A DNA stretch of 64,000 bases from a virus (IMGVR_UViG_3300020577_007233:1-64000), one strand, 5' to 3'. Counted from the stretch's first letter, positions 31,021 to 61,100 are shown. Numbers and translations: made by a program. The notes: generated from the sequence alone by a model not told the origin.

Positions 31021-32211
31021 TCAATCTAACCACGGAAGTTGTCCAGATTTTTTTGGTGCATCTTTTGGCTTTGAGGCCGCAGTTTTTACCGCCTCCTGAA
31101 CTTCAAGTCTGTCATAACCTTCATTTGCTAGACGACTTGGAGTTGAAGAGGCTTGAACAACTGCTTTCTTAGCACTTTCCGGCAAACTATTGAACTTACT
31201 CTCAAGCCCTTCTGTTCTATTCTGTTCCTTAACAAGCTCAAGAGCAATACTAATTTTGCGGCTCAAAATTTCTTTAGCCTCAAGAAGATTGTGGTAAACA
31301 TCTTTAGCGTTTTGTTCAAGAGACTCAAGACGAGATGCATACATCTCAATGTCTTTCATATGGTCGTAAATAACGCCATCTTGCCTTGCTGCTGGCTTTT
31401 CATATGTCACTTTAGCGAGTACGCCTCTGAGTAATTCAACTCCTCGCTTAGCAGCAGCGCATTGACTTGTTGCTTGTATCTTGATATGAACAACTCGATC
31501 AAGAAGATCTTGAATACGAGTAAGCTTATCCGCCATACCCCTCATATCAGTAAGCTCTACATTTGTACTTACCGTGGAAGATGTTAGTTCAGCAGTGAGC
31601 TTATCAATATCAATAGGACGACCATTCTTCGTTATATGACGAATGAAAGAAGATTTCTCTTCATAGAAGCGATTGAACATCGGAGATGGAGCCGTAAGAC
31701 ACCATCCATCAGAATCTGGTTTCTGGTCATACAAAACTGACGAAGTTATATGATCGCCATTCTGGACAGTAACCTTTTCTTCCTCGATATGCTCTGAATC
31801 GAGATCAGCATTATTCGGTTGCGACACCACGGGTTGTACCTCTTCAGGGACAGTGAATTCAGGACGAATTGACTGTGTGAGTATTTTTTCGAATTCGTCT
31901 TTGGGGGCTGGGGTTGGGGCTGCTGGGACTGGGATTGGTGAGGCTGGTTGGGATTGAACATTGACCTTTTCCTCCGTCTTAGAAGCGTATACCACATTAA
32001 CTGGAGGTGCGTCTTTTGCCAATTGTTCTTTAACCTTCTGTGCCTTTTGCTCAAAGGCAACTTTTTCATCAGCCACTATAACTTCTGCATAAGAAGTTTC
32101 TTGGCTGTCGTCTGCTTCTTCCTTGATGTTTGAACCATCTTTAGGAATAGCGAATATTGCATCTAGTTGGTCTTGAATTGGCAATGTCATTACTTCATCC
32201 TTATATTTCAA
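31021..32211 (-). CDS. hypothetical protein (disordered N-terminus, coiled-coil C-terminus)
   Basis: 396-aa ORF. Confidence 0.7.
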   Translation of the reverse strand: MKYKDEVMTLPIQDQLDAIFAIPKDGSNIKEEADDSQETSYAEVIVADEKVAFEQKAQKVKEQLAKDAPPVNVVYASKTEEKVNVQSQPASPIPVPAAPTPAPKDEFEKILTQSIRPEFTVPEEVQPVVSQPNNADLDSEHIEEEKVTVQNGDHITSSVLYDQKPDSDGWCLTAPSPMFNRFYEEKSSFIRHITKNGRPIDIDKLTAELTSSTVSTNVELTDMRGMADKLTRIQDLLDRVVHIKIQATSQCAAAKRGVELLRGVLAKVTYEKPAARQDGVIYDHMKDIEMYASRLESLEQNAKDVYHNLLEAKEILSRKISIALELVKEQNRTEGLESKFNSLPESAKKAVVQASSTPSRLANEGYDRLEVQEAVKTAASKPKDAPKKSGQLPWLD

Positions 32212-32531
32212 CCCAACTTGTCAAAGTCTTGCTTTTCTTCAGCAGATAATCCACGACGAGATGGTTCAGCAGAATTCATCGTTGCTGCAAAACTTGTCAT
32301 TTTGAGTTCCTCGAAGACCTTCTTCGCTGTTTCATCAAAATCTTGAGTAACAAGCGTAGTCAAATTATCGCTCTTCTTTCTAAGGGTATCAATAGAATCC
32401 CACTCAATCTCATGCTGATGATCGACAGTGATATCCATTGTCTCATATTTTGCAGTATTGTACTTCCGCATGATAACTTTGCGGATTGTTGATTTTCTTG
32501 TTTTCGCTACTTCATTTGCTTTATCTGACAT
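32208..32531 (-). CDS. hypothetical protein
   Basis: 107-aa ORF with GGAG SD. Confidence 0.65.
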   Translation of the reverse strand: MSDKANEVAKTRKSTIRKVIMRKYNTAKYETMDITVDHQHEIEWDSIDTLRKKSDNLTTLVTQDFDETAKKVFEELKMTSFAATMNSAEPSRRGLSAEEKQDFDKLG

Positions 32532-32587
32532 GATTATGCTCCATTTGTATCTTGAGATCGACTACTACATTTAATCTGTCTACTGAT

Positions 32588-34564
32588 TCACCCAAACATA
32601 TCGCCGGCTTCAACGCCTTTTTTCCTAGCTCTCTTGAGGTCTTCTCGAATGATGGTAAACTCTTTCATGATATCATCCTTTGATTTACCTCTTCCCTGCT
32701 TTGGCTTAAAGAAACCAGCAGCCAGTAAAGATTCTACAGCTTTCGTATCAACAACCTTCGTATCTGTCTTTTCTGCAAAGTCTTTCAAACTCGTATAAGG
32801 CTGATTCTTTTCGATATTCTCAACAGCCGCATCACTAAGGCCTTTACACTTCAAAGAAGGCATAATTTGCGATTTAGGAACTCCATTGGACGGATCTGCC
32901 TTAGATGCAATGTAATATCTAGCCTTACAATCGTTGATATGTCTCTGAAGAATCTCTACATTCATTTCCTTAGCCATCTTTTCCAACGATTCTACCTTTT
33001 CATACTTTGACCTACCGATTTCAACATTGAGATAAGCAGTAAGAAATTCTTCTGGATAATTGGCCTTCAGGTATGCTGTAATGTAAGAATTGTACGCATA
33101 GCAACAAGCGTGAGCCTTATTGAAGCCGTAATCCGCAAACGGCATGATGACTCTATCCCAATAGTCTTGGGCAACTTTACCATCTATACCGTTTTCTTGC
33201 GCGCCAGAAATGAATCTAGCTCGATACTTTGCAAGCAGTTCTGGCTTCTTCTTACCAATAGCTTTGATAACAACGTAACCTTCAGGGATCGAAAAGCCTG
33301 CAACAGCGTTGCATATCTGCATGACCTGTTCTTGATAAACAAGCAGTCCATACGTCTTCTTGAGATATGGCTCAATATGCTTCCTCAAAGAAGAATGGAA
33401 GTAATCTATTGGTTCGACACCGTGCTTACGATTGCAGTAAGTAGGAACTGACTCCATAGGGCCGGGACGGTACAAAGCTATACCTGCCATGATATCATCA
33501 AGAGAGTCAACTCCCATGTTTACCATTGTCTTTTGCATTCCATGCTCTTCGCACTGGAACACTCCGACAAGCTGACCGCTCTTATAGAGATCAAACGTCT
33601 TTCGATCATCTAGAGGCAAATCGTAAACGTCAATATCTATACCATAGTTCTCTTTTACAAGCCTGCAACAATGGTTGATAACAGAAAGGGTACTAAGAGC
33701 AAGAATATCGAACTTGATAAGACCAAGCAATTCAAGATCGTTGTACTCAAACTGAGTAGCAAATGTATACTTAGGCCCATCATTTTCTTCGCCGTCTTCG
33801 CTGACAATCTTGGTCTGGCGAAGCGGCGCTATGCTTGATAGAGGCTCATTCGAAATAACAATACCGGCAGCATGCACTCCGAAAGTAGAAAGTAATCCCT
33901 CGATATTGCGAGAGTGAGTGAGGATATCTGGGTATTTGTCAACGTAGTAACGAAAATTCTTGCACCACTTGTAAGCGTCCTCGACAGTTTTGATTGCATG
34001 TTCATTGCCATCCTGATCCTTAACCTTCAAAAAGGCTCCATATTGCTCAGGGAGTGAGTCAAGAATCTCATTTCCCAACTCATTTGTTTCAACTTTCCAC
34101 TGATCATGACCTTTGAAGAAAGTTCTTTCTGGATCAACAGCCTTGATGACCCTTCTAACGAAGCTCTTCATCTTGAGGCCAGAATACGTTCCTATGTTTC
34201 CAACGTGTTCTCTTCCGTATGTATCAATAATGTACTTATAGATTTCGTTTCGATGCTCATAATCGAAATCTGAATCAATATCGGGAAAGCCCTTACGGGC
34301 AAAAGCTCGACGCTTCTGCAAGAACGAAGAACCTTCGTCTGGCTTTTTGTCAGTCATTCCAAGAGCATAAGCGGTCCATGAGTTGATCTCATTTCTCTTG
34401 CCCTTTTTGCCAGCAGAGTTTTTCCATAGTCCATGAAACTTCTGAAGAATAGGCTTTTCATCAAGCCCTTCAGTTTTTTCCATCTTTTCAAGCTCTTCTT
34501 GAACAAGAGGAAGTAACGACTTATCTTGAATAGCTTCTAGAATTTCTTCTTTAATTGTTGACAT
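32588..34564 (-). CDS. dnaE: DNA polymerase III alpha, C-terminal part (palm catalytic Asp, thumb, fingers, HhH)
   Basis: FPDIDSDF, HAAGIVI, KFDILAL, GVFQCE, ALYRPGP, YQEQVM, YGFNKAHA, YLKANYP. Confidence 0.93.
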   Translation of the reverse strand: MSTIKEEILEAIQDKSLLPLVQEELEKMEKTEGLDEKPILQKFHGLWKNSAGKKGKRNEINSWTAYALGMTDKKPDEGSSFLQKRRAFARKGFPDIDSDFDYEHRNEIYKYIIDTYGREHVGNIGTYSGLKMKSFVRRVIKAVDPERTFFKGHDQWKVETNELGNEILDSLPEQYGAFLKVKDQDGNEHAIKTVEDAYKWCKNFRYYVDKYPDILTHSRNIEGLLSTFGVHAAGIVISNEPLSSIAPLRQTKIVSEDGEENDGPKYTFATQFEYNDLELLGLIKFDILALSTLSVINHCCRLVKENYGIDIDVYDLPLDDRKTFDLYKSGQLVGVFQCEEHGMQKTMVNMGVDSLDDIMAGIALYRPGPMESVPTYCNRKHGVEPIDYFHSSLRKHIEPYLKKTYGLLVYQEQVMQICNAVAGFSIPEGYVVIKAIGKKKPELLAKYRARFISGAQENGIDGKVAQDYWDRVIMPFADYGFNKAHACCYAYNSYITAYLKANYPEEFLTAYLNVEIGRSKYEKVESLEKMAKEMNVEILQRHINDCKARYYIASKADPSNGVPKSQIMPSLKCKGLSDAAVENIEKNQPYTSLKDFAEKTDTKVVDTKAVESLLAAGFFKPKQGRGKSKDDIMKEFTIIREDLKRARKKGVEAGDMFG

Positions 34565-35201
34565 TTACATTCTCCGTTGTTATTCTGGGCAAAACAACGC
34601 CAGGGCCGTACACCCAATACCCAATTTGATTATTTTGATTAGAACATCTTTTTTGTTGATTACTATATTTTAGACTATAAGAACCTAGTTTGAAATTCTT
34701 TTCCGATATTTCTAAATCACAAGAATATTCTGTTCCAGAATTATGGTAAAGTTCATTATCTATGTTTTTAACAAGCTGAATGTTTTCATTACGATAATTT
34801 TGCATAAAACTTCTACATAAATTAGCCATTTCTTCCACAAAGAAAAGCCTTCTTAAGTCAAACGAATGCTGACCCAATTCATAATAGCTTATGAGTTCTA
34901 CTTTGAAATAGTCTAGAAAATACAATCCATCTTTCGAATTAACACTAGAAGGAAAACACGGAACTGCGCAGCAATATTTACCTTCATGAAGTTTGTCATC
35001 TAAAATCATTTCAAGAAATGACTGCTCGCCAGATGTTACAAACATGCTTGGATTGCATTCAAGAACATCCTTTTCAGTAAAAAGCTTAGGACAGGTAATC
35101 AACATCGCTTCCTTAGAAACACTCCAAGGAACATCTATGTATTTATATCCATGTTTTTCATAAAATGAAATTGCTTCGACAACTATTTTGTAGTCAATCA
35201 T
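34551..35201 (-). CDS. class II aaRS-like catalytic core, degenerate paralog
   Basis: YIDVPW, SGEQSFL, YFKVEL, GVVLPR; motif-2 Arg absent (PCFP). Confidence 0.65.
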   Translation of the reverse strand: MIDYKIVVEAISFYEKHGYKYIDVPWSVSKEAMLITCPKLFTEKDVLECNPSMFVTSGEQSFLEMILDDKLHEGKYCCAVPCFPSSVNSKDGLYFLDYFKVELISYYELGQHSFDLRRLFFVEEMANLCRSFMQNYRNENIQLVKNIDNELYHNSGTEYSCDLEISEKNFKLGSYSLKYSNQQKRCSNQNNQIGYWVYGPGVVLPRITTENVNVNN

Positions 35202-35213
35202 TTAGCCCGCCAT

Positions 35214-35801
35214 TTAGTGAAACAATCTCGGAAGAGCAACTCCTGTTCCGTACATCCATCTGCCGCAACTAGGATGAGATCTCAGTCCATAAGAACCCAA
35301 TTCGACACCTTTGCTAGTGACAACATCGTAGTTCACAAACGTATCGCACTCATGTCTTGGATCATCTTCTGTTTGAACAAAGTCAAGCTCATCAGTAATA
35401 ACGCTACCCATAAACGCCATAGCATCATGTATCATGTCGCCAAGACCAAACTCGCTAAAATCTTGAGCAAGCGTATTGATTAACTCAACCTTGAAGAATT
35501 GAGAAAAATGCAAGCCATCTTTCTTGAGTCCGTCAAACTTTCGATAACATGGAGTTGCGCAACAGTATTTGCCCGGAGGCAGTTCTTGATTAAGAATCAT
35601 CTGCAAAAACGATTGTTCACCAGAAGCAACCATTTCTTCTTCTCGAATCGAATTTGGTTCTATACAGGTTGGAAGAGTAACTAATAAGGCTCTTTTGGAA
35701 ACAACCCAAGGAACTTCAATGTACTTGTATTCCGCAATATCTTCGTAGTAACGAATAGCCATATTGACGGCATCATAATCAATCAAGGGAAATCTACTCA
35801 T
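35214..35801 (-). CDS. stand-alone class II aminoacyl-tRNA-synthetase-like catalytic core
   Basis: YIEVPW, SGEQSFL, TPCYR (motif 2), FFKVEL, ELGSYG, GTGVALPR (motif 3); no anticodon domain. Confidence 0.75.
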   Translation of the reverse strand: MSRFPLIDYDAVNMAIRYYEDIAEYKYIEVPWVVSKRALLVTLPTCIEPNSIREEEMVASGEQSFLQMILNQELPPGKYCCATPCYRKFDGLKKDGLHFSQFFKVELINTLAQDFSEFGLGDMIHDAMAFMGSVITDELDFVQTEDDPRHECDTFVNYDVVTSKGVELGSYGLRSHPSCGRWMYGTGVALPRLFH

Positions 35802-36046
35802 TGTCTACTCCCGTCCATAAACGCAGATCTCGTTGCATTAGACATCTTAATAAGGTCTTCGATAGTGAAAGCAGGAAGTCTAAAACTCAAATAACCCTGT
35901 ATGGCTCCGACTAAATCAGAAAGCTCAACGAGAGCCATAATCTTATTGCCCTGTTCTTCTGCGTCCTGAAGCTCTTGAAGCTCTTCTACAATCTTAGATA
36001 TCTCGCCATACTTGCCCTTTGTGATATGTCTACGATGATAGCCCAT
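35798..36046 (-). CDS. small MazG-like all-alpha NTP pyrophosphohydrolase
   Basis: KIVEELQEL...VELSDL (EExxE...ExxD pattern). Confidence 0.55.
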   Translation of the reverse strand: MGYHRRHITKGKYGEISKIVEELQELQDAEEQGNKIMALVELSDLVGAIQGYLSFRLPAFTIEDLIKMSNATRSAFMDGSRQ

Positions 36047-36047
36047 A

Positions 36048-36899
36048 TTATTCTCCAAAACACATTGATTCAACCCCGTGCCTTTCGGCATAGGAACTTT
36101 TCTTAACAATGAGCAATTCAATCTCTCTGTCTTTCTCTTCTTCTGTTTGCATGCTTTTTGCTACAGACTTTTTATAGTAAGCAAAACCTTCCTTTTCAGG
36201 ATAAAGCTGCCTAATAGCTTCGCTGTCGTAATACGAGATTGCACAACTGCCTTTGACTGATTTTACAACACCAGCCATCTCTTTATGATCAAATCCCTTT
36301 TTCTTGTTTACATGATAGAAGTTCTTTTCAACATTTTTGTAAGGAGGGTCAAGATAAAAAAGAGCTTCTGGACAATCCCATTTTCTCATACAATCTTCGT
36401 AGTCAAGATTCTCTATGTAAACATGGCGAAGAAAAGCTGCGCATTGTTCAATAAGAGGAGGCAATCTTGCCCAAGTTAGACAAATGTTCTCGCCAGTTCT
36501 AGAAACACACCATGAACCATCTTCCTTACCAAACATGCACTGTCTGTTATAGATGAGATAGTTTCTGGCCCATTCAACAGGGTTTTCTTTCAAGAAATCT
36601 TTATCGCCTTCAATATACTCGTTGGCAAGATCAAAGTCTCTTCTACTATAAGGGGTCGTAACAACTGCGCTTAAGAACTCGTCCCTATGATCTCTAATAA
36701 CTCTAAATAGATTCCATACATGACCATCCAGGTCGTTATAGATCATTCTGTATTTGTCGTCGGGTTTAGGCATGCCATACCCAACCGCAAAACTTCCGCC
36801 AAATGGCTCGCAGTATACGGTATGAGCAGGCAAGTGTTTGATTATCCATTTACGAATTTTCACTTTACCGCCTATTCTTTTTATGATAGTGTCTGCCAT
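36048..36899 (-). CDS. Dam/D12-class N6-adenine DNA methyltransferase
   Basis: GGK, YCEPFGGS, YND, IENLDY, YLDPPY. Confidence 0.92.
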   Translation of the reverse strand: MADTIIKRIGGKVKIRKWIIKHLPAHTVYCEPFGGSFAVGYGMPKPDDKYRMIYNDLDGHVWNLFRVIRDHRDEFLSAVVTTPYSRRDFDLANEYIEGDKDFLKENPVEWARNYLIYNRQCMFGKEDGSWCVSRTGENICLTWARLPPLIEQCAAFLRHVYIENLDYEDCMRKWDCPEALFYLDPPYKNVEKNFYHVNKKKGFDHKEMAGVVKSVKGSCAISYYDSEAIRQLYPEKEGFAYYKKSVAKSMQTEEEKDREIELLIVKKSSYAERHGVESMCFGE

Positions 36900-37420
36900 T
36901 CTCTCCCCTCGCCAAGGATCTCCCAAGTGTTTTTTCTGTAATCCACAAGTCGATAAAACTTAGCATCGGAAATGGGAACTTTTCGAACATAATCCGGTCC
37001 TCTTCTTGTATTTTCAAGAACAGGATTCAGCGGGTCATAAGCTTCATACTTTATGATAGCGATTCCCTTAAGATCTTCGCTGCAAAGAGCAAAGGTTGTA
37101 AACCTATTTCTTGAGTTCGCTTCCTTACTCTTCCTGTTAAGTACATTAACTGTATCAAACGGGAAGTACCCATTACCAAACGCCCAGTTATGCTTTATCT
37201 CTGCGCTTATGATAAGGTGTTTGCCGCCTAAATCGCATTCAATATCCCTATGATAGGGTAAATCTCTTTCTGAACCTGCCTCTGCTATCAGATTCTTGGC
37301 TCCAAGTCTGTGAAGAAGACTAAATACAGCCATCTTAGCAAGAACATCGCACTCGAAGTCTTCCTCTCGGAAGCGAGAAGCCTCTTTTCCTTTGATGCTT
37401 TTGTCAACTTGAATCATCAT
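36881..37420 (-). CDS. putative PD-(D/E)XK nuclease
   Basis: RDIECD...SAEIKHNW spacing resembles the D...E-x-K motif. Confidence 0.45.
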   Translation of the reverse strand: MMIQVDKSIKGKEASRFREEDFECDVLAKMAVFSLLHRLGAKNLIAEAGSERDLPYHRDIECDLGGKHLIISAEIKHNWAFGNGYFPFDTVNVLNRKSKEANSRNRFTTFALCSEDLKGIAIIKYEAYDPLNPVLENTRRGPDYVRKVPISDAKFYRLVDYRKNTWEILGEGREWQTLS

Positions 37421-37421
37421 T

Positions 37422-38831
37422 TCAATACCTATCAACTCCGCCAGCATCCTCAGTAACATCTCGGTCTTCAAACAACTCGGTATTAACAACCTCTTCAATA
37501 GCTGGAACTGCTACTTCTTCGCCAAAGAAATCTTGTTCTTGAACGAAATACTTATCATCAAAACCAAGGAATCGTTCCCAAATCAAGTCATACTTCAAAG
37601 GATCTGGTCCGTAAGAAATGCCTATAGCTCTAAGAAGAACGCTAGCATAACCAGAACCTCGACCACACCCTGTTAGGATGTTCTGATCCTTAGCTTTCTG
37701 TATGTAGTCTCTAACGATCAAGAAATAAGTCGCAAAGTCATACTTGTTATTTTCCCAAGCAACTCTTACGTCCTCAAGTTCTCGCTTAAGTCTTTCAACA
37801 TGCGGAGGGCTTCTATCCCATCCCAATTTCTTCATTCCCTCCCATGAAAGGTGAGAAAGATAGTCAAACGGAGAAGCAAACCCTTCCGGCATTTTGTACC
37901 TAGGCAAACGCATGCCTGAATTCATATTGGTCCAAATGTCCTTTGCGTCAACCTTGTCAGCAACAGTTACGGTATTCAGCAAGAACTCTGGATGAGAACC
38001 AAACATAACAGCCATCTCAGCGGCTGACTTCATGTAAAATTCATGGTAAGGGAAATGCAAGTGCTTTGGATCGTGCAAGCATCTACTTGTAGACATGCAC
38101 ATAAGAATTTCTTGCGAGAGTCCGTGTTCTTTCTTGCAGTAGTGACAGTCATTGGTAGCAATAATCGGAACGTTCATGTCCTTTCCGATTTTAATGATAT
38201 CTGGAATGATCATAGCTTCTGCATCAATGCCATGATACATAACTTCCAAATGGAAGTCTTCCTTGAAGATGTCCTTGAAGATGCCAACAGCTTTCCTTGC
38301 CTCTTCAACTCTACCATGAAGAATGTTTGCGTTGATTACGCTGCTCAAGCAAGCTGAGTTGCACATAAGACCTTCGCTATGCTTGGCAAGAAGCGGAAGG
38401 TCAATACGAGGGTCAATATACCATCCCTCTGTCCAAGACTGCTGAGAAAGGGCGCAAAGATTCTGCCACCCCTTCCAGTTTTTGGCTATCAACACAAGGT
38501 GTCTATTACCCTTGCGACCCTCTGTTTGGCCTTTGATAACTTTAGTACCTTCTCTTTTTTCAGTAAAGCGAAGGTTTCTGTCTTTGGATAAGTAGAATTC
38601 GCATCCAACAATAGGCTTGATGTCAAAGTTCTTTTCTTTGTCATTCCAGCAAGATTGAATGAACTTGACTGCTCCACCGATATTTCCGTGGTCAGTTAAG
38701 GCTAGGGCTTTGAATCCCATCTCTTTTGCAGATTTAGCAAATCCTGAAAGCTTATTCAGCCCGTCAAAAGACGAGTATTCCGAGTGGTTGTGAAGATGCA
38801 CAAAATCCGCATTGGTTATCGTTCTGCTCAT
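37422..38831 (-). CDS. dnaE: DNA polymerase III alpha, N-terminal part (PHP domain plus first part of palm)
   Basis: FVHLHNHSEYS, ALTDHG, KPIVGCE, TNDCHY, YFLIVRD, GRGS, WERFL. Confidence 0.93.
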   Translation of the reverse strand: MSRTITNADFVHLHNHSEYSSFDGLNKLSGFAKSAKEMGFKALALTDHGNIGGAVKFIQSCWNDKEKNFDIKPIVGCEFYLSKDRNLRFTEKREGTKVIKGQTEGRKGNRHLVLIAKNWKGWQNLCALSQQSWTEGWYIDPRIDLPLLAKHSEGLMCNSACLSSVINANILHGRVEEARKAVGIFKDIFKEDFHLEVMYHGIDAEAMIIPDIIKIGKDMNVPIIATNDCHYCKKEHGLSQEILMCMSTSRCLHDPKHLHFPYHEFYMKSAAEMAVMFGSHPEFLLNTVTVADKVDAKDIWTNMNSGMRLPRYKMPEGFASPFDYLSHLSWEGMKKLGWDRSPPHVERLKRELEDVRVAWENNKYDFATYFLIVRDYIQKAKDQNILTGCGRGSGYASVLLRAIGISYGPDPLKYDLIWERFLGFDDKYFVQEQDFFGEEVAVPAIEEVVNTELFEDRDVTEDAGGVDRY

Positions 38832-38875
38832 AGTACCAATTCGTCATTGTACCGAACAGCCTTTTGCGAAACACT

Positions 38876-39223
38876 CTACGACAAATCCAGAGTGTCTCCC
38901 TTGTTGACTGTCTCTTTCTTCATAAAGATTTCAGATGGAGAAACCGTTGAGCTTATATAGTCAATATTCTCAATAGGAACTTTCTTAACAACCAAGCTGT
39001 GAGTTGAATTGATAACAGTCAGATCAAAGGTATCTTCGGATACAAGGTTTATCCTGACCCTTTCGTGAGATGTAGGCATAGAATGGGCATCTCGCCTGTA
39101 CGAGATAGAAATATCAGTTCTTGCCTTATGGAAGTTTTGAAGCAAAGTTCTAATGGCTTCTTTGTCTTCAACTTGCTCATCAGCAATAACCTGAATTGTC
39201 ATTTGCTTACGAACGTATCTCAT
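38876..39223 (-). CDS. hypothetical protein
   Basis: 115-aa ORF. Confidence 0.6.
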   Translation of the reverse strand: MRYVRKQMTIQVIADEQVEDKEAIRTLLQNFHKARTDISISYRRDAHSMPTSHERVRINLVSEDTFDLTVINSTHSLVVKKVPIENIDYISSTVSPSEIFMKKETVNKGDTLDLS

Positions 39224-39225
39224 GG

Positions 39226-39504
39226 TTAGCCATGCTTTCTCGGATCGAATCTTTCTCGAATGCCTTTGGTTTTGTCGCTAACCCACTTTGGCTTAGTCTT
39301 GCGTATATGATCTCGAACATCAGAGCATCTTTCCCAAGCTGGTCTGCCATCTCTAACCGATGGGGCCGAAATAGCACGCCTAACAGCCTTGCCTGTTTCA
39401 GGGTGCTTTACTAGAGCTTCATCGCTCATTTTCTGCAAAATCTCAAAGCGTTCACCAGTTGGCTCGCCTTTGTCATCGAGGATTTCATACTCATAGAATG
39501 GCAT
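39226..39504 (-). CDS. FmdB-family protein (cysteine-less variant)
   Basis: MPFYEYE...ERFEILQKMSD...HPETGKAVRRAIS. Confidence 0.8.
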   Translation of the reverse strand: MPFYEYEILDDKGEPTGERFEILQKMSDEALVKHPETGKAVRRAISAPSVRDGRPAWERCSDVRDHIRKTKPKWVSDKTKGIRERFDPRKHG

Positions 39505-41868: not shown

Positions 41869-42636
41869 TTACTCCAAAAGAATATCAACTTTTACTGCAT
41901 CAAGCCGTGATCTAGTTATTTCGATTGCTTTTGAGTTTTTGTCGCTTCCAACCACGAATCTATCTAAGCTCAATCCTGCTTCTAGAAAAGAACCACTGCC
42001 ACAAAAGGGGTCGAGTATTCTGTCTTTAGGATTGCTCCAGGTTTCAACAATTCGCTGCATCAGTTTTAACGGCTTCTGTGTCGCATACCCAGTTTTCTCT
42101 GGCTCGTTTCGACATATCGCAGGAATGTCAATCCACCAATCCTCAAGCAATTTTCCCCTCTTTTCGTAATGCTCCCAAGGAATCTTGTCCTTGGACCAGG
42201 CAGCATCACCGCCAACATGCATTTTGGTCTTATACGGAATTCTTGGCTGATTGAAGACGTAGTTTCCTGTTCCATACCATAAGATCGTATTATGCTTGCG
42301 AGGGAGCCATCTTTTAGCGCTTGCAGGATTACTAAAGCACCATATGATTTCGTTCCTGTAATTATCCCGTCCAAAAAGTTCATCCATTATCACCTTTATG
42401 TAGTGAATTGCTTTCCCGTCCATATGCACAAGTATATTGGCATCTGGATTCATAAGTTTCTTGATATTGAATAGCCTGTCCTTCATGTAAGCAAGAAAAC
42501 CCTCAAAAGTATCACCAACACCATAGTAAATATCCTCAGACTCGCAACTATAGGGAGGGTCAAGATATACCAAGGAAACTGGATCAGTGAGCAGTTCCTT
42601 GCAGTCAACATTATGAAGCTCATAATTACTTTTCAT
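41869..42636 (-). CDS. beta-class N6-adenine DNA methyltransferase
   Basis: LDPPY, NEIIW, YATQKP, DPFCGSG. Confidence 0.92.
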   Translation of the reverse strand: MKSNYELHNVDCKELLTDPVSLVYLDPPYSCESEDIYYGVGDTFEGFLAYMKDRLFNIKKLMNPDANILVHMDGKAIHYIKVIMDELFGRDNYRNEIIWCFSNPASAKRWLPRKHNTILWYGTGNYVFNQPRIPYKTKMHVGGDAAWSKDKIPWEHYEKRGKLLEDWWIDIPAICRNEPEKTGYATQKPLKLMQRIVETWSNPKDRILDPFCGSGSFLEAGLSLDRFVVGSDKNSKAIEITRSRLDAVKVDILLE

Positions 42637-43261
42637 AAGCCCTCAAGTTACGAATGTTTTGTATCTCTTCCTGCTTCATTTTTTCAATATACATAAGATA
42701 CCTTTGCTTAGTTCTCTTAGGCAATGCATTAGACAATTGCTCAAGCTCTTCAAGATTCTGTATTAGAACCAAACTATCAGTTAAAGAAAAGACCTTTTCG
42801 GCTATGTCTAGTTCCTCTTTATCAAAATTCACTCTAACCAGAAAGTCATGCATATGAACTCCGATGAAAAGAGACGCAGCGAGTATAGACTCGCTCTTAT
42901 CTGTCTTTTCGTCAGAATTGATAGTGATGATTATTTCCCTAAGCAATGAATCGAGAACATCGTCGATGTTGATATTCAAGCCAGCGGAAAGTTTCTTGAT
43001 TGAATCTTTTATTGATATCTGTTCATATGCAGCAACAAGCTGAATAATGCTGCCAGCGTGTTTGCATCCATAACAATAAAAATCCTGCCTATCAGGCTTG
43101 TCATAGACAAAGAATGATGGAGTGTTGTCATTGTTATGTCCTGGCAAAGGACAACGATATCTCAGTCTATCACCATCTTGACTCGCGCAGCGTATGCCCT
43201 TAGACGTTAGATAGTCTGTAATTTTTGCTGACTTAGCTATAGTGTCAAGAATAAAGCTCAT
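42626..43261 (-). CDS. CHC2 primase zinc-finger protein (separate N-terminal half of DnaG) plus helical extension
   Basis: CPLPGH.....PSF...FYCYGC. Confidence 0.85.
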   Translation of the reverse strand: MSFILDTIAKSAKITDYLTSKGIRCASQDGDRLRYRCPLPGHNNDNTPSFFVYDKPDRQDFYCYGCKHAGSIIQLVAAYEQISIKDSIKKLSAGLNINIDDVLDSLLREIIITINSDEKTDKSESILAASLFIGVHMHDFLVRVNFDKEELDIAEKVFSLTDSLVLIQNLEELEQLSNALPKRTKQRYLMYIEKMKQEEIQNIRNLRAYEK

Positions 43262-45737: not shown

Positions 45738-48725
45738 TTAATTGCTCAAATCAAGATTGATAGCATCTTTTTTCAGGTTTGACTCTGATGCTTCTTCTAT
45801 TGTGTTTGCAAACTTACATCTACCCTTTGCCCACTCTCTCATTTGTTCAAATTCTTTGTCTCTCGTTTTTGACAAAGGAGAAATAGTAGAACAGGATTTG
45901 AGTATGTCTTTGGAAGTTATCTTTCTTTTGCCGTCGCAAAAACACTCAAACATTGAATCTTCAATGGCTTTTTCAATTTCAGCACCGCTAAAGCCTTTTG
46001 TATGAGAAGCAAGGGCGTCAAGATTGAACTCAGAAGAATCATGCTTGAATCTCTTAAGCAGAACATCAAAAATCTGTCGTCTACCAGCTTCGCCAGGCAA
46101 ATCAACAAAAAATACTTCATCAAACCTGCCTGCTCGCATAAACTCAGGAGGAATGTCTTGAACATTGTTAGCCGTGCAAATAACGAAAACAGGAGCCGTC
46201 TTTTCTTGAAGCCATGTCAAAAACGTTCCGATGACTCGCTTTGTTGTTCCGCTATCACCAGAACCTGCCCCTACACCACCAGCAAGACCTTTCTCAATTT
46301 CATCTGCCCAAAGTATGCAATTGTGACAGAGAAAACCGTTAGCAAAGAAATTGTTATTGCCTTCGCAGGAAAGATCGTATGCAAACTGCATACCAACAGA
46401 CTCGATTTTCTGTATCTTGACAGAAATAACATCTGACTCAACAAGCTTAGTTATTGGGCAAGATGAATCACTCTTGAACTTCTTCTTCAAGAACATATTC
46501 AACATAGAAGCCGCCCCATGCTGCATCATTACAGCATCTTCTTCAAATCCGCAGATTTGACTGTACTTGCTTTCGGTAACTCCAAAATTAGACTTAAGGT
46601 AAGCCAAAGATTTACCAAATTTATAGCCAACCATATCAATCAAAAGCGGACGATTGAGTTCGATATGATTCATAAAACCTGCCACGCTAGTAACGGAGGT
46701 TTTTGACAAGTATGGCAACTCAGCAAGAAGCGTTCTAATGAATAGCGGGTCAAGAATAATAGCTGTTCTCAAAGACTTAGAAGCGATAATACCATAAACC
46801 AGAAGCGATTTGCGCAATCTATCAAACGAAGCTTCTGTCTGTATTGGAAATGAAACATAAGGCTTACGAGGGGTTTCTTCGTCCCTATCTACAAAACCAA
46901 TTTGGCCGCCAGCATGAAAGAACCCTCCAAGATACGACTGCAAGGCGTCCATATCTTGAGAGCCAAGATCCCGCAAGAAGGCGCTAATAGCCTCGGCAAC
47001 AACCTTGTTCTTCAACCTTACAAAGCTATCGCCTATCTCCGGTTCAGTAAGGAAAGTCTGGCTCATATAGAAAGCAAAGATATGTCTCGTTGATGAGTTG
47101 TTGCTCGAAAAGAGAATATCGCCAGTTTCTGTGTTACAGTTTCCATTGGAATCTATCATTCCAGCTATGGTTGCCACTCCTTCAAGGCTCGTCATGGGTA
47201 CGGAAATATCAGCGCAATGCAAATTACCGCCAACTCTCGAAACCGCCTTCGTCCCCTTTGCGGTAGGGAATAGTTCTTGAATTTGGAAGCTCTTTACATC
47301 TCTCTTGAGATATTTAGGCATAACAAGAGCATCATTAGCGGCAAGCTTACTTGCCTCAACCCAAATTAAGTCGCCATCTCGGTTCACCATCATCTTATGA
47401 TTGCGAGTAACTTCAATAGAACCAGCAGAAGTTGTGATTTTCAGCATGCTCTTCTTTCGGGCATGCTTAATAACGGCCTTGACCTTTGTTTTCTCTATCT
47501 TCCAGGTCTTTTCATTCAAGGCATAGATATACATTGGTTTATCGCCATTGCCTGCGTCAATAAGATCTTTGATCTTAAAACTCTTGCCTTCGTGATCGTA
47601 AACAATGGAATCACCGCTAACGCATGGAGCAATCGTTTCGGACAGCTTAATAGCATGGCGAGCAATCTTTTCGCTTTCTCCAACAAGGGAATTGAACATC
47701 TTGCCAAAGTCAAGCCTAAGCAAAGGCATCTCATACATTGTTGATGCGGCCTTAGCGGTCAAGCTTTTACCACAACCTGGTAATCCAAGCAAAAGTACAC
47801 CCTTTGGCGGCTTAAGACCATAAGATGCAGCGTCCTTTGAAAAGGAAACTCTTCTAATGTTCATCCAACGAGCAAGGTTATCAAGACCTCCAACATCGTT
47901 CATATTTACTTGCGAGTCAACGTATTCAAGAACATCGGTTTTCTTGATGATCTGTTTCTTTTCCTGAAGAATCATTCCGATATCTAAGGGCTTTAGTCCA
48001 AGTTGATTCGCCATAACAATAGACTTGGAATAAGCTTGATTTGCCTCTGTTAACGTAAGACCCTTAACAGCGTTGACAAGCTCTTCTTCTTGTTTGTTGA
48101 TAATCTTCGATATCGTTGGCATACTGGCAATGATTTTATCTGCGCTTGTAAGAGAATGCAAAACGGATTTGATTTCCTGTTCGTTAGGGAACGGGAAGTC
48201 AAGAATTGCAACCTCTTTCTCAAGGGCTGGATTGCCAATGAAACTTGGACCAGTAAAGATCACATGAGAGTTAGAAACAAGCCTATTCAGGTACTTGATT
48301 TGTCTCTCAATCTGAGGGTTACATCTATCTGGACTCAGATAGCGGTAGAAATCACAAAGAATAAAGATAGAGCCATTGCCTTCGATCTTTTTCTTTTCTT
48401 CGTTCTCAAGTTCGTCAATAATGAAAGCGAGTATCTGTTCTGGATATCTCAAATCAAGCGTTGAATTCGTCTGTAAAGGAGCCTTCTTGCCAAGACTACG
48501 AAGAAGCTTGAAGCAATCCCATTCAAAAGCCTGGTAGCCTCGGTCTTTCGAAACGCTATCAAGATATTCCAGCAATCGTTTCTCATCGCTGCTTGAGATA
48601 TAGATTACTTTGGTTCTTGTTCTAAGTAGAGCAATAAGACTGTTGGCAAAATCAACAGTCGCCATTCCAAGATACTTCTTCCTGAAATCCTGACTATCAG
48701 TTGGTAGGCTCGTTTCTTTCGGCAT
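45738..48725 (-). CDS. Ycf46-like AAA+ ATPase containing an intein
   Basis: DVGGLDNL, GLPGCGKS, VGESE, AP|C...N|CILWADEIEK, TANN, PPEFMRAGRFDE. Confidence 0.9.
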   Translation of the reverse strand: MPKETSLPTDSQDFRKKYLGMATVDFANSLIALLRTRTKVIYISSSDEKRLLEYLDSVSKDRGYQAFEWDCFKLLRSLGKKAPLQTNSTLDLRYPEQILAFIIDELENEEKKKIEGNGSIFILCDFYRYLSPDRCNPQIERQIKYLNRLVSNSHVIFTGPSFIGNPALEKEVAILDFPFPNEQEIKSVLHSLTSADKIIASMPTISKIINKQEEELVNAVKGLTLTEANQAYSKSIVMANQLGLKPLDIGMILQEKKQIIKKTDVLEYVDSQVNMNDVGGLDNLARWMNIRRVSFSKDAASYGLKPPKGVLLLGLPGCGKSLTAKAASTMYEMPLLRLDFGKMFNSLVGESEKIARHAIKLSETIAPCVSGDSIVYDHEGKSFKIKDLIDAGNGDKPMYIYALNEKTWKIEKTKVKAVIKHARKKSMLKITTSAGSIEVTRNHKMMVNRDGDLIWVEASKLAANDALVMPKYLKRDVKSFQIQELFPTAKGTKAVSRVGGNLHCADISVPMTSLEGVATIAGMIDSNGNCNTETGDILFSSNNSSTRHIFAFYMSQTFLTEPEIGDSFVRLKNKVVAEAISAFLRDLGSQDMDALQSYLGGFFHAGGQIGFVDRDEETPRKPYVSFPIQTEASFDRLRKSLLVYGIIASKSLRTAIILDPLFIRTLLAELPYLSKTSVTSVAGFMNHIELNRPLLIDMVGYKFGKSLAYLKSNFGVTESKYSQICGFEEDAVMMQHGAASMLNMFLKKKFKSDSSCPITKLVESDVISVKIQKIESVGMQFAYDLSCEGNNNFFANGFLCHNCILWADEIEKGLAGGVGAGSGDSGTTKRVIGTFLTWLQEKTAPVFVICTANNVQDIPPEFMRAGRFDEVFFVDLPGEAGRRQIFDVLLKRFKHDSSEFNLDALASHTKGFSGAEIEKAIEDSMFECFCDGKRKITSKDILKSCSTISPLSKTRDKEFEQMREWAKGRCKFANTIEEASESNLKKDAINLDLSN
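46320..47624 (-). mobile_element. 435-aa intein with degenerate LAGLIDADG domain
   Basis: starts CVSGDS, block B VTRNH, ends YDLSC...NFFANGFLCHN followed by extein Cys. Confidence 0.93.
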
Positions 48726-58116: not shown

Positions 58117-61100
58117 TTACAAGATTTGTACTGTATTCGATTCAGTTGCCGTACCAACGCTAATCCCATCAAACGGAATTACTTCGGCTTTCCATTTCTC
58201 GCCAGACGAGGTATTCACTGCTGGTACAATCCTCACATTTTGCAAGGAAGAAACCTCTGCAAAGTCGTCAGAACCTCTTGGTGCCCTGAGCCACCTGATA
58301 GAACTTTGATCGCTCTGAGTGCTACCCTGCTGTTGTGATTCATTGTCAACGTATGTATATGTTAGCTGAAGCGCTGACGCTGAAGAAACTGTTGGATTTG
58401 GAGATATCGTTACAAACCTGACTGATGGAGGATCGTTCTCAACAGAAACCGCAGCGCTTGTTACTGGATTTCCAATAATGTTATCCGTAGCAGGAAGTAT
58501 CGTAACTTCAAGAGTATTGCCTATCGCTATAGCAATAATGTTGTTCTTGATTTCTCCAACAAGAATTTCGTTGTTAGATATGCCACCAACAGTTACGCCA
58601 AGATCGCCTCTCTTGAATTCAACTCCATTAACATACCATATGATCTGTGATTTAGTTTCTCCATCACCATCCTGGAAGAATTCAAAGTCTGCGAAAGCTC
58701 TTGTTGCTGTCGTTACGGTATCTTGAACTGTTCCGTCATTCTTTTTACCCTTAATTGAAACAGTTGATATGAATGGAGGAGCCTCTATTATCTTAACAGA
58801 TGGAGAACGAACAATCTCGCTCAACGCAGTTCCGTCGCTCGCTCTTATTGTCGCATAAACAGTATCGTTTACCTTGAGTATGCTTTCTTGTCTCTGTCTA
58901 GCATATTGCTCAACGCTTGTTCCGTCTGGAACGTCATCTTTCTGGAATGAGAAAGCGTATATCCAAAGCGGATCATTAGTGTCTTCAAGATTATTCCATG
59001 TTCTTAGATTTCTAAGATACTCTATTTCAACACCATTGATGTACCAACGAATTTCCGTTTGTTCTGTATCTTCATCATTTTGGTTGATATCGAAATACTT
59101 GTAGCTAACGCTCAATTTTTGATAGATAGTCGCAATGGAAGGCGTTACTCTAAACTCAGAAACAACAGGCGGTCTCTGCGAAAGAGGAGGCGGCAAGAAA
59201 ACATTAGTGTTGTACATATAACCAACACCATCTATTGTTACGGGATTATTGGAATCCATATTCAAAACTCTTATACCAAGTTTCATTCTTCCCGCGTTCT
59301 CAATAGAAATGGAGAATGGACCAGACTGCTTTGAGTCAAAGATTACAAAGCCGTCTTGAGGATAAGTCTTGAATACAGCAGGATCAACTATTCCGCCATC
59401 TGCATTTCGAATCTCAACAGCAGATGTTGTATCCCATCTACCGTACTTAGCTTTCCACATGAAACCATCAATGCTCTCTAAGGGTTCATTGAGTGATGAA
59501 TCGTTTTCTTGATTGTATCTAATCGGAATGAAAACCTTACCGAAACGGTCTGATGGAGGCTGTGCGCCGCTCTTGTAATCAGACCAGTTGTATGAATTGC
59601 TCGTTGTTACCCCAACCTCAATCTGAGACAGTTCGGGTTTTGTTGCAGAAACAGAAACAGCAATTTGCTGAGGGCTGTAGTCTGTTGTTTCTGGCGTCAA
59701 GAATATGAAGCTCTCTGTCGGAACGCTATACTCGATATTTATGCCCGTCAAAGCCGGAGCGCCTGGAGTTGGAATAAGTTCGTATTCGCTTTCGATAAAT
59801 GAACTTAGACCGCTGAGCAAAGTAATCTTAAACTGCAAGAATCTTTCATTCAAGAATCTTGCATTAACATCGGTAAGTTCAATCTCTGTATTTGGGTTGA
59901 AAGAATCGCTGTAGTCTGAATAGTTAAAGCCGTCTTCGCTTGTTGCGACCTTCCAGCTTCCATCGGTATTTGGGAAAAGTTCATAGTCAAGAGTAATTGA
60001 GTTGACTATGCTATTGGCCTTCAAATCAACAACACATTCGTATAAGCCCCAACCAATAGAACCTTCAACCCTTCCAAGAGCGTTGTTCAAGACTTCATCT
60101 ATAAAAGTTGCATCCAAAACAGTTTGGCTTTCGCCGCCCGTCTCGTTAGCTATAGTCTCAAGAGAATCAAGATCTGTTCTAGCAACCAATGCTGAAAGAG
60201 TTACAGGGAAAACAACCGAGAAGTTGTTTATGACAACTGGAACTTGGGCAAAACCGTCAATAGCCTGAACGTCCTCTATCGCAGTTTGAAGAGTATTGAC
60301 AGAAAGGTTTTCTTCGTTATCTGTGTTGACATATATGACCTTTGAGTAGATATCGAGCGATTCGTCTAGAAGAATAGAAGAGTTACCAACAATAGCATCA
60401 TACAGAGGTGAGGCTCCAAATGGGATCTCGTTGCGAAGCCTTCCGAGATACTTGGTCATGTCTTCATATTCGCCATTGTTGACAAAAGTTATGATCTGAG
60501 GAATCCATTCAATGTCGCTGTAATAAGCAACTTCTGGGCTTTCCAACTGAGGAGTCTGCGGAGGAGCGAGATCGAAAACAGGATTATCACTCTCCTTGAG
60601 CGTCTGATCGATAACTTGGTTATTCTCGTTGTCTCCGTTTTGATTGCCTCCGCCTTGATTATTACTTCCTTCAACAGCCTGACTTGCTTCTATGCTGCGA
60701 CATCCTTCAAATTCAGTAGGAGGAGTTCCACCAGAATCAGAGCCTCCAGGATTCTGATTAGAGTCCCCACCCGAATTATTAGACCCGCTATCATTCGTTG
60801 TGGGTGTTGAGTCAGTATTGTCCTTGATATCAATAACGGTTTGTCCGTAGAAGAAGTCATCAATAACTGTTATTCTAACTTTGATAGAGTACGGATTTCG
60901 GGTCTCGCCCTCAACTATCTTGAGAGTGTTGCTGCCTTCGTTACCCCCTTCGCCTACAACCTGTTCCTGTATGCCAAGTTTTTCTTTGATCTCTGATATC
61001 TTCTTGAGAATATCATCAGCCCTTGGCAACATAATAGTAGAACCAACACCGTTAGTTATGTAGAAATCATTAGAACTGAAGACTACTGGATATACAAGAG

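Follow-up and report, generated by a model that had tools for sequence, protein, structure and literature searches.

Bacteria replicate their DNA with family C polymerases, which are as a rule single chains. In the canonical DnaE1 enzymes of E. coli, Taq and M. tuberculosis (structures 2hnh, 3e0d and 7pu7), one chain carries the nucleotide-binding GS motif and the catalytic DxD strand ~39 residues apart and continues into an OB fold and a tau-binding C-terminal domain (CTD). Here we describe a dnaE that is encoded by two genes, with no intein, in a 64,000-nucleotide stretch of viral DNA (IMGVR_UViG_3300020577_007233:1-64000; hereafter, the window), which is the first 64 kb of a 256,820-bp IMG/VR virus record with a CheckV completeness of 51%. 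The two-gene, intein-free DnaE is real and conserved, and its products very probably form a non-covalent, two-subunit family C replicase with a composite active site; we infer the physical assembly of the halves from the data below. The window enzyme retains the domain order, fold and catalytic residues of canonical DnaE1, and its PHP ligand set is of the active M. tuberculosis (Mtb)/Taq type. It departs from the DnaE1 architecture of a single polypeptide with a C-terminal OB fold and tau-binding domain in being made from two genes and, unlike the canonical proteins, its family stops at the position of the internal clamp motif and carries an insert with a duplicated unit.

Among described systems, the closest is the minimal Pol III alpha of group 2.2 (T4-like) jumbo phages, in which the GS and DxD subdomains are split between two proteins for which assembly into one enzyme is predicted (Iyer et al. 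2021; PMC7824862). The window shares with it a phage family C module made as two proteins with the same topological cut. However, the version of Iyer et al. is a core without PHP, is encoded by distant genes and stands beside a family B replicase, whereas the window enzyme is near full size (PHP, palm, thumb, fingers and HhH), has neighbouring or, in relatives, overlapping genes, is the only polymerase detected and is broken within a duplicated-unit insert for which natural fused counterparts exist. In phage Aeh1 the ribonucleotide reductase is split by the homing endonuclease mobE into NrdA-a and NrdA-b, which form a composite active site non-covalently (Crona et al. 2011; PMC3045599). Here too an essential enzyme of nucleotide metabolism is made from two genes without splicing and bears new tails at the break. 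Aeh1 has an identifiable homing endonuclease gene (HEG) in the gap and essential tails, while the window gap offers a weak PD-(D/E)XK lead beside a Dam methylase, the tail of the window family is absent in about a quarter of cases and the head is a folded module that unsplit relatives also have. The PhiKZ replicative polymerase is likewise two polypeptides, DNAP-N and DNAP-C, which form a stable 1:1 complex (PMC13648687), and this pair and the Aeh1 pair are experimental precedents for assembly without splicing. The family B palm of PhiKZ is, however, not homologous to the Pol-beta-like palm of family C, and the break points differ. The split gp43 of some T4-related Aeromonas phages is reportedly another two-polypeptide family B polymerase.

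Replication genes in pieces, sometimes with an endonuclease gene between them, are also known as the cyanobacterial split-intein DnaE and other "fractured genes" (Dassa et al. 2009; PMC2677866). In those the pieces are ligated by trans-splicing, whereas the window break has no intein parts; the C-half of one relative (L010) does resemble them. In the GenBank records of two cultured phages, PV686781.1 and OM634661.1 (Alicyclobacillus phage MMB025 and Bacillus phage vB_BauM_KLEB27-3), the annotated Pol III alpha is in two pieces that flank an endonuclease or HNH gene, at a break site that differs from that of the window. Megablast of the locus against GenBank phages gave zero matches, and tblastn found only relatives of at most 39% identity and no cultured phage with this dnaE split. 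A literature search of incomplete coverage found no account of a PHP-bearing split DnaE family or of a series of fused and split forms. Split enzymes are known in principle; what is new, and open to test, is that this one is the apparent sole replicase, that its insert holds a duplicated unit and that fission and fusion form a natural series.

The N-half gene (window 37422-38831; this and all features below lie on the minus strand) encodes 469 residues comprising a PHP exonuclease domain, the palm's N-terminal part and a tail. Its open reading frame (ORF) and domain matches agree with an earlier sequence-only reading of the window, which had described it as PHP plus GRGS..WERFL plus an acidic tail. 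The protein aligns to Mtb DnaE1 residues 3-413. Its PHP domain (residues 12-200; 38232-38798) matches PF02811 with an E value of 4e-40, and its metal-ligand motifs (HxH, D, DHG, E, H, C and DxH) all look intact when aligned with Mtb DnaE1; the domain is apparently an active proofreading exonuclease. Residues 324-425 match positions 2-97 of the palm profile PF07733. Within this region the GRGSG nucleotide-binding (GS) motif (residues 390-394; 37650-37664) has a column conservation of 1.00 across 118 N-halves, as does WERFLGFD. The segment from the GS helix to WERFLGFD..DF (residues 395-435; 37527-37649) is the first copy of a duplicated unit and would supply the N-side strand of the clasp proposed below. 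In the GS..DF segment the proportion of nonsynonymous differences (pN) is 0.03-0.12, against a saturated proportion of synonymous differences (pS).

An acidic tail of ~46 residues closes the N-half. By conservation and selection, residues 436-469 (37425-37526) consist of a variable acidic linker, under relaxed constraint (pN 0.3-0.5), and a conserved C-terminal peptide, R-D-V-x-D-D-x-GGVDRY, under purifying selection (pN 0-0.2). The GGVDRY motif is present in ~73% of split N-halves, in which it ends exactly at the stop codon; the other ~27% have no tail and end in ..DFV, and all fused forms lack it as well. Because the tail is absent in ~27% of split forms, it is an accessory of some lineages and not a general joint. 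The suggestion that the halves are held together by this acidic tail and a basic N-extension of the C-half is therefore not supported, and the extension itself proved not to be basic overall: C-half residues 1-50 are net acidic, and the basic patches are at 52-57 and 84-91.

The C-half gene (32588-34564) encodes 658 residues, which run through a head, a degenerate ("pseudo-GS") copy of the duplicated unit, the catalytic strands, thumb, fingers, HhH and a C-terminal peptide. The end of the upstream gene overlaps its ATG, and it has its own GGAG Shine-Dalgarno sequence. Residues 61-289 match PF07733 positions 69-260, followed by the fingers (residues 292-459; PF17657, E 5e-52) and HhH (residues 536-620; PF14579, E 8e-10), and the protein aligns to Mtb DnaE1 residues 381-915. 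The catalytic strand PDIDSDF (34265-34285), at which DnaE had been said to resume, is invariant; its D95 and D97 are the counterparts of E. coli D401 and D403, and C-halves likewise never vary at K284 or at D286, which provides the third carboxylate. Across 114-115 C-halves and the fused relatives, P94-D95-x-D97-x-D99-F100, R90, K284 and D286 are invariant. The protein ends in a peptide of the form G-x4-D-[IM]-F-x (32591-32617; conservation 0.98 at both G650 and F657), here ..GDMFG, that the fused relatives share. This peptide sits where E. coli alpha has its internal clamp-binding motif, which we take to be QADMF at 920-924, and by this positional correspondence may itself bind a clamp. As had been read from the sequence, the C-half has no OB fold (PF01336) or CTD: no profile match was found, although bacterial relatives do match PF01336, and the structural alignment ends at E. 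coli alpha 924-927. All fused classes are missing both domains too, so this is a trait of the whole family and, because unsplit relatives share the loss, it is unrelated to the gene split.

The two halves overlap in homology. PF07733 positions 69-97, ~30 positions, are common to both, and C-half residues 55-93 align to the stretch from the GS helix to NPER of canonical DnaE (Taq 422-460, Mtb 381-413). Because both the HMMER profile positions and the structure-reference alignments of the halves overlap, the unit "GRGS - helix - DP loop - ERFL" occurs a second time, in degenerate form, at residues 55-93 (34286-34402); the N-half has its copy at 390-425. Copy 1 retains the invariant GRGSG, while copy 2 has lost the Gly-Ser. 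Copy 2 nevertheless has invariant residues of its own (G55, N58, N61, S62, P75, R85, R86, F88, A89 and R90), a pN of 0.08-0.24 against saturated pS, and terminates in an invariant RR-x-FAR that runs straight into the invariant PDIDxDF strand. Canonical bacterial DnaE resembles copy 2 more than copy 1. Ahead of copy 2 stands a family-specific, moderately conserved three-helix head (residues 1-54; 34403-34564; predicted helices 2-11, 15-30 and 39-49), which is also found inside the long single-chain relatives. Hence, of the ~90 N-terminal residues first taken to be novel, the head is family-specific and residues 55-93 are DnaE-like. An "IN|S" in this region was considered as a relic of an intein C-terminus and rejected: N58 aligns with the Ser of GRGS, and therefore the whole GRGS unit is duplicated.

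Single-chain relatives, sought among longer proteins only, are 44-58% identical to the N-half and fall into four classes by their junctions. In the long fused class (1071-1117 residues), WERFLGFD..DF, a short linker, the three-helix head, the pseudo-GS copy, RR-x-FAR and PDIDxDF follow one another in one chain, which thus equals the N-half minus its tail plus the C-half, with an insert of ~110 residues. The medium fused class (P0300 and P0310) has both copies and no head. In the short fused class (956-998 residues), WERFLAF is followed by about six residues and KR-x-FAR-x-GFPD, so that the ends of both copies are kept. A canonical-looking form is represented by a single example, P0308. All fused classes end in the same C-terminal peptide. 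The cut had been placed in the palm just before the catalytic aspartates; it does fall between GS and DxD, but no canonical palm segment is severed: the site is the flexible linker within a ~110-residue insert, specific to the lineage and found in single-chain relatives as well. In natural single-chain relatives of 45-55% identity, the tail-proximal and head sequences together make up one insert.

AlphaFold2 models were obtained of the long-fused relative P0263 (96-row alignment) and of the window C-half alone (115 rows). P0263 was predicted with a mean predicted local distance difference test (pLDDT) score of 93.8 and a predicted template modelling (pTM) score of 0.89, and compared with Taq, Mtb and E. 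coli Pol III alpha it gave template modelling (TM) scores of 0.69-0.75 on the query and at most 0.86 on the target. Its sole low-confidence stretch is residues 431-450 (block means 64 and 80), the linker after ..DFGF, which is where split forms carry the stop and the start. The insert is otherwise confident (86-95), with helices at 444-456, 462-477 and 486-497, and short strands are assigned at 417-420 (GFD.K) and 532-535 (x-FAR). The C-half modelled alone has a pLDDT of 90.3, including a confident head (82-94). In residues 81-100, the RR-x-FAR segment, confidence falls to 65 and 75 and the x-FAR strand is not formed, which in these models fits a requirement for the N chain as partner. The C-half model superposes on Taq Pol III alpha (3e0d) with a VIA Z of 30.7 and a root mean square deviation of 2.9 over 512 residues, its residues 88-655 lying on 3e0d chain residues 454-983. 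Alignment starts at residues 87-88 (Taq 454, E. coli 392-394), and residue 658 corresponds to E. coli 924-927. Because the alignment to solved DnaE structures starts only at 87-88, the pseudo-GS helix in the model does not occupy the canonical GS-helix site, which stays free for the N chain.

The features of a family C palm (the GS motif, D95, D97, D286 and K284) are present only when both chains are taken together. With the GRGSG invariant on the N chain and the DxD pair, K284 and D286 on the C chain, a working active site therefore needs both. Across more than 100 clusters each half has retained its catalytic invariants. In the arrangement that we propose, the PHP exonuclease would come from the N subunit, together with the beginning of the palm and the GRGSG loop that grips the triphosphate of the incoming deoxynucleotide. 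From the C subunit would come the catalytic aspartates D95, D97 and D286, K284 and R90, as well as the thumb, fingers and HhH module for duplex binding, and the clamp-binding-like C-terminal peptide. The break may be tolerated owing to its site, as it falls in the only flexible linker of the ~110-residue insert, formed by the three-helix head and the pseudo-GS copy, that takes the place of the short hairpin-like connection from WERFL to DxD in trimmed relatives. At the base of this insert, the N-chain strand after WERFL (GFD.K) could pair with the C-chain RR-x-FAR as an intermolecular ribbon, a clasp that would add to normal palm packing in holding the subunits together. Translational coupling and placement in one operon would lead to co-expression of the halves, and the five genes now between them would be later insertions into the intergenic gap.

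The same split is found in 8/8 related viral contigs, with identities of 64-82% for the N-half and 55-77% for the C-half; conservation of the split point in related phages had been named as a check on the sequence-only reading, and it bears the reading out. A search with an E value cut-off of 1e-10 gave 2711 homologues of N-half length, the best 120 of which were inspected and are all of 429-601 residues. C-halves of 610-690 residues number more than 110, and contigs of 460-506 kb carry many of them. In comparisons of the window with its relatives pS is saturated (0.5-1.0) and pN is 0.13-0.29 in the two core regions; judged by these substitution patterns, both halves and both junction segments are under purifying selection, with only the linker relaxed. 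At every examined locus that carries both halves they are neighbours. In the more distant members L012 and L013 they are 14 nt apart, and in L014, L015 and L018 they overlap by 8-11 nt (8 nt in L014); in these overlapping forms, L014 among them, the last part of the N gene contains a strong Shine-Dalgarno sequence, AAGGAG. In abutting halves, whether they overlap by 8 nt or leave a gap of 14 nt, the C gene is read in a frame shifted by +2. In the window, every gene junction from N-half to C-half is tight or overlapping. The basic unit is a translationally coupled gene pair whose intergenic spot gathers cargo; since the halves are 14 nt apart or overlapping in relatives, the five gap genes are secondary cargo.

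The only two PF07733 fragments in the 256,820-bp record are the two dnaE halves. In two near-complete relatives (494 and 499 kb; rated 98% and 100%), DnaE is likewise present solely as two fragments, and no Pfam match to a family A or B polymerase was found in them. PF00136 (family B) has no match in the record or in the complete relatives. On the basis of the missing family A/B match and the presence of only two DnaE fragments in the near-complete relatives, the two-gene DnaE is probably the replicase of the phage. The record also gave zero Pfam matches for a beta clamp, clamp loader or PolB, which is weak evidence as the record is only 51% complete. With no phage beta clamp detected, the polymerase may use the host beta clamp.

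Alternative accounts of the two genes were weighed against the composite enzyme. The contig is a metagenome assembly rated only 51% complete, so the arrangement might be a misassembly, or the genes the remains of a polymerase pseudogene broken by insertions. Yet Logan contigs from three other studies span the N-half, the gap genes and the C-half, answering the question of misassembly that had been raised with the sequence-only reading; the split recurs in dozens of contigs from different samples; and strong purifying selection, with no other polymerase found in the complete relatives, speaks against decay, leaving artefact or decay vanishingly improbable. Joining of the halves at the level of RNA or translation, by intron splicing, trans-splicing, a programmed frameshift or read-through, is very improbable. 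One indel or slip could fuse halves that abut in the +2 frame, and fused forms exist, but in the window the halves are 2.86 kb apart with five intact conserved genes between them, the C-half has its own Shine-Dalgarno and start codon, the C-terminal peptide motif of the N-half ends exactly at the stop, and Rfam has 0 matches in 32000-39500, whether to a group I or II intron, a ribozyme or any other RNA family. We regard a cryptic split intein that joins the halves after translation as similarly improbable. The family is intein-rich, L010 has a genuine split-intein break with an HNH gene elsewhere in its C-half, and one protein of another DnaE lineage (P0463) has a split-intein C-fragment at GRG|S, three profile positions from the start of C-half homology. 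However, neither half gave a Hint/intein match (PF14890, PF13403 or PF14528) at the junctions, upholding the earlier statement that split-intein motifs are lacking, and the same models do detect inteins in relatives. Further, the N-half after GRGS is DnaE sequence, the helices of the head do not fit the all-beta Hint fold, the junction has no conserved pair of Cys/Ser/Thr nucleophiles, tail-less forms end directly in DFV, and in single-chain relatives the head stays in the mature protein as a folded part.

A less remote, though still improbable, account is that the halves work independently, the N-half as a stand-alone PHP exonuclease or proofreader and the C-half as a self-sufficient polymerase using its pseudo-GS unit (G55..N58..N61-S62). 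The second GS-helix unit is conserved and selected, the head of the C-half is predicted to fold confidently alone, and the five intervening genes show that close adjacency is not required. Against this, the N-half keeps GRGSG, WERFLGFD and ~100 residues of palm invariant, which a pure exonuclease would not need; the C-half is without the whole N-terminal part of the palm (PF07733 positions 1-68); the pseudo-GS unit has lost Gly-Ser and is not at the canonical GS position; and single-chain relatives hold both copies in one folded palm. Several points weigh against the composite replicase. The role of the conserved pseudo-GS unit of the C-half is unexplained, and the conserved GGVDRY tail has no assigned partner, showing no clean covariation with head residues W47 and W63 across 11 paired loci. 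The inter-chain ribbon rests on DSSP strings and pLDDT differences of single-chain models, and the Pfam models behind the missing family A/B polymerase could miss very divergent enzymes.

Inteins do interrupt the dnaE halves of relatives at other places. L007 (8633-11176), and likewise L008, has an in-frame LAGLIDADG intein in the N-half at PHP residue 77, and L010 (8117-10738) has one in the N-half near residue 227; these in-frame inteins are of ~380-400 residues. Many C-halves of 1050-1120 residues have inteins near residues 415-484. In L010 (12094-15387) a second break divides the C-half: the leading piece terminates in a weak Hint N-fragment and is followed by a 307-residue ORF with zinc finger and HNH-endonuclease PHROG matches and then by a piece with an intein-C-like start. 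This C-half break is a "fractured gene", a split intein with a free-standing HEG.

To follow the break through the family, trees were built of the N part (FastTree) and the C part (FastTree and IQ-TREE, 62 rows). Fused and split states interleave on them and at least 11 changes are needed; the minimum that branches with SH-aLRT of at least 95 impose is 4 changes each for the short-fused and the long-fused states and 10 for the split state. Where the halves overlap, an indel of one or two bases in the linker would suffice to join or separate them, and therefore frequent switching is plausible. The deepest branches of the trees are split forms. Because they retain the ends of both copies, the short forms appear to be deletion derivatives of an insert-bearing ancestor rather than the primitive state.

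How the break arose may be envisaged by two routes. Speculatively, a tandem duplication of the 38-residue GS-helix unit and insertion of the head would have been followed by fission of the linker. The other route is descent from a split-intein locus, a tentative and rather unlikely proposal, which is favoured by the intein site of P0463, the closer likeness of copy 2 to canonical DnaE and the split state of the deepest branches. P0463, 35% identical to the C-half, starts with a split-intein C-fragment of 36 residues ending in VVHN (PF14890 positions 121-155 at residues 2-36, E 3e-4, below the gathering score), and its residue 37, the Ser of a GRG|S site, is PF07733 position 66; this site is three profile positions from the start of C-half homology in the window family, and the split-intein break is ~40 residues upstream of the break studied here. 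By this route the C gene would have started as an intein C-fragment (IntC) plus an extein beginning at the GS helix. The N gene would then have regained the full GS-to-ERFL unit through recombination with an intact allele, creating the overlap; splicing would have become dispensable, with the helical head replacing IntC, and the long and short fused forms would be repeated secondary re-fusions. That the split is the ancestral state of the megaphage DnaE family, possibly descended from a GRG|S split-intein locus, is put forward as a doubtful proposal. If true, the junction would be a natural, repeatedly used "snap-fastener" in a replicase, and nuclease and methylase cargo in the gap might keep it mobile.

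In the window the halves are separated by five co-directional, tightly packed and intact protein genes over 2.86 kb, the five unrelated genes of the sequence-only reading. The gene next to the N-half (36881-37420; 179 residues, family not assigned) has its ATG 1 nt past the N-half stop and no Pfam or PHROG match; a weak Atlas lead to PDDEXK_14 (0.94) accompanies a D..E-x-K-like motif, and homologues at the same place occur only in L005 and L010 among the 8 related contigs. It is followed by a D12-class (Dam-like) N6-adenine DNA methyltransferase (36048-36899; PF02086, E 7e-25), which is in the gap of 7/8 close relatives. Together these two genes (36048-37420) could be a restriction-modification-like or homing cassette. 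The third gene (35798-36046) encodes a small phrog_6408 protein (E 1e-33) found in 3/8 relatives (L004, L005 and L006), the fourth (35214-35801) a small "histidyl tRNA synthetase"-like protein matching phrog_4806, and the fifth (34551-35201) its paralogue, also by PHROG match. A ~95%-identical wastewater strain (run X7) skips 650 bp, 34548-35199, equal to one phrog_4806 paralogue, and a minor contig in X1 has a similar skip. Gap contents vary between relatives, that of L009 having three unrelated ORFs, and no homing endonuclease at the palm break was found by Pfam or PHROGs in the gap ORFs of the window and relatives. A sigma-70 promoter scan was not above shuffles. Terminator-like hairpins were above shuffles but weak and inside ORFs, and were not used.

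The close relatives of the source phage are of 494-499 kb and rated 98-100% complete, one with direct terminal repeats, and the source, a freshwater phage, is therefore a megaphage of ~500 kb. Near-identical DNA is present in riverine and wastewater metagenomes. The genes flanking the dnaE halves are all on the minus strand within a replication module that includes RecA, a UvrD-type helicase, DnaB, an intein-bearing AAA ATPase and an SF2 helicase. The AAA+ ATPase (45738-48725, minus strand) has 995 residues, with an Intein_splicing domain at residues 378-802. In L014, L015 and L018 a gene of 172-211 residues with only a Zn_ribbon_DnaG domain directly follows dnaB, and a 211-residue ORF of the window (42626-43261, minus strand) matches it in position. 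At the window end, an ORF of at least 1953 residues (58117-63978, minus strand) has Kelch/beta-propeller repeats at about residues 555-830.

In this enzyme the nucleotide-binding loop and the metal-binding aspartates of one active site are on different polypeptides, and the two-gene DnaE is apparently the sole polymerase in a widespread group of ~500-kb aquatic phages. For annotation, thousands of metagenome entries labelled "partial" or "PHP domain-containing" are halves of one enzyme. Related enzymes that are split, fused with the insert and fused without it provide natural controls, and the design of split polymerases may profit. This natural series opens the questions of how a Pol-beta-like palm tolerates fission and what the duplicated GS-helix unit and the GGVDRY tail do, and it bears on how often essential genes cross the boundary between fission and fusion.

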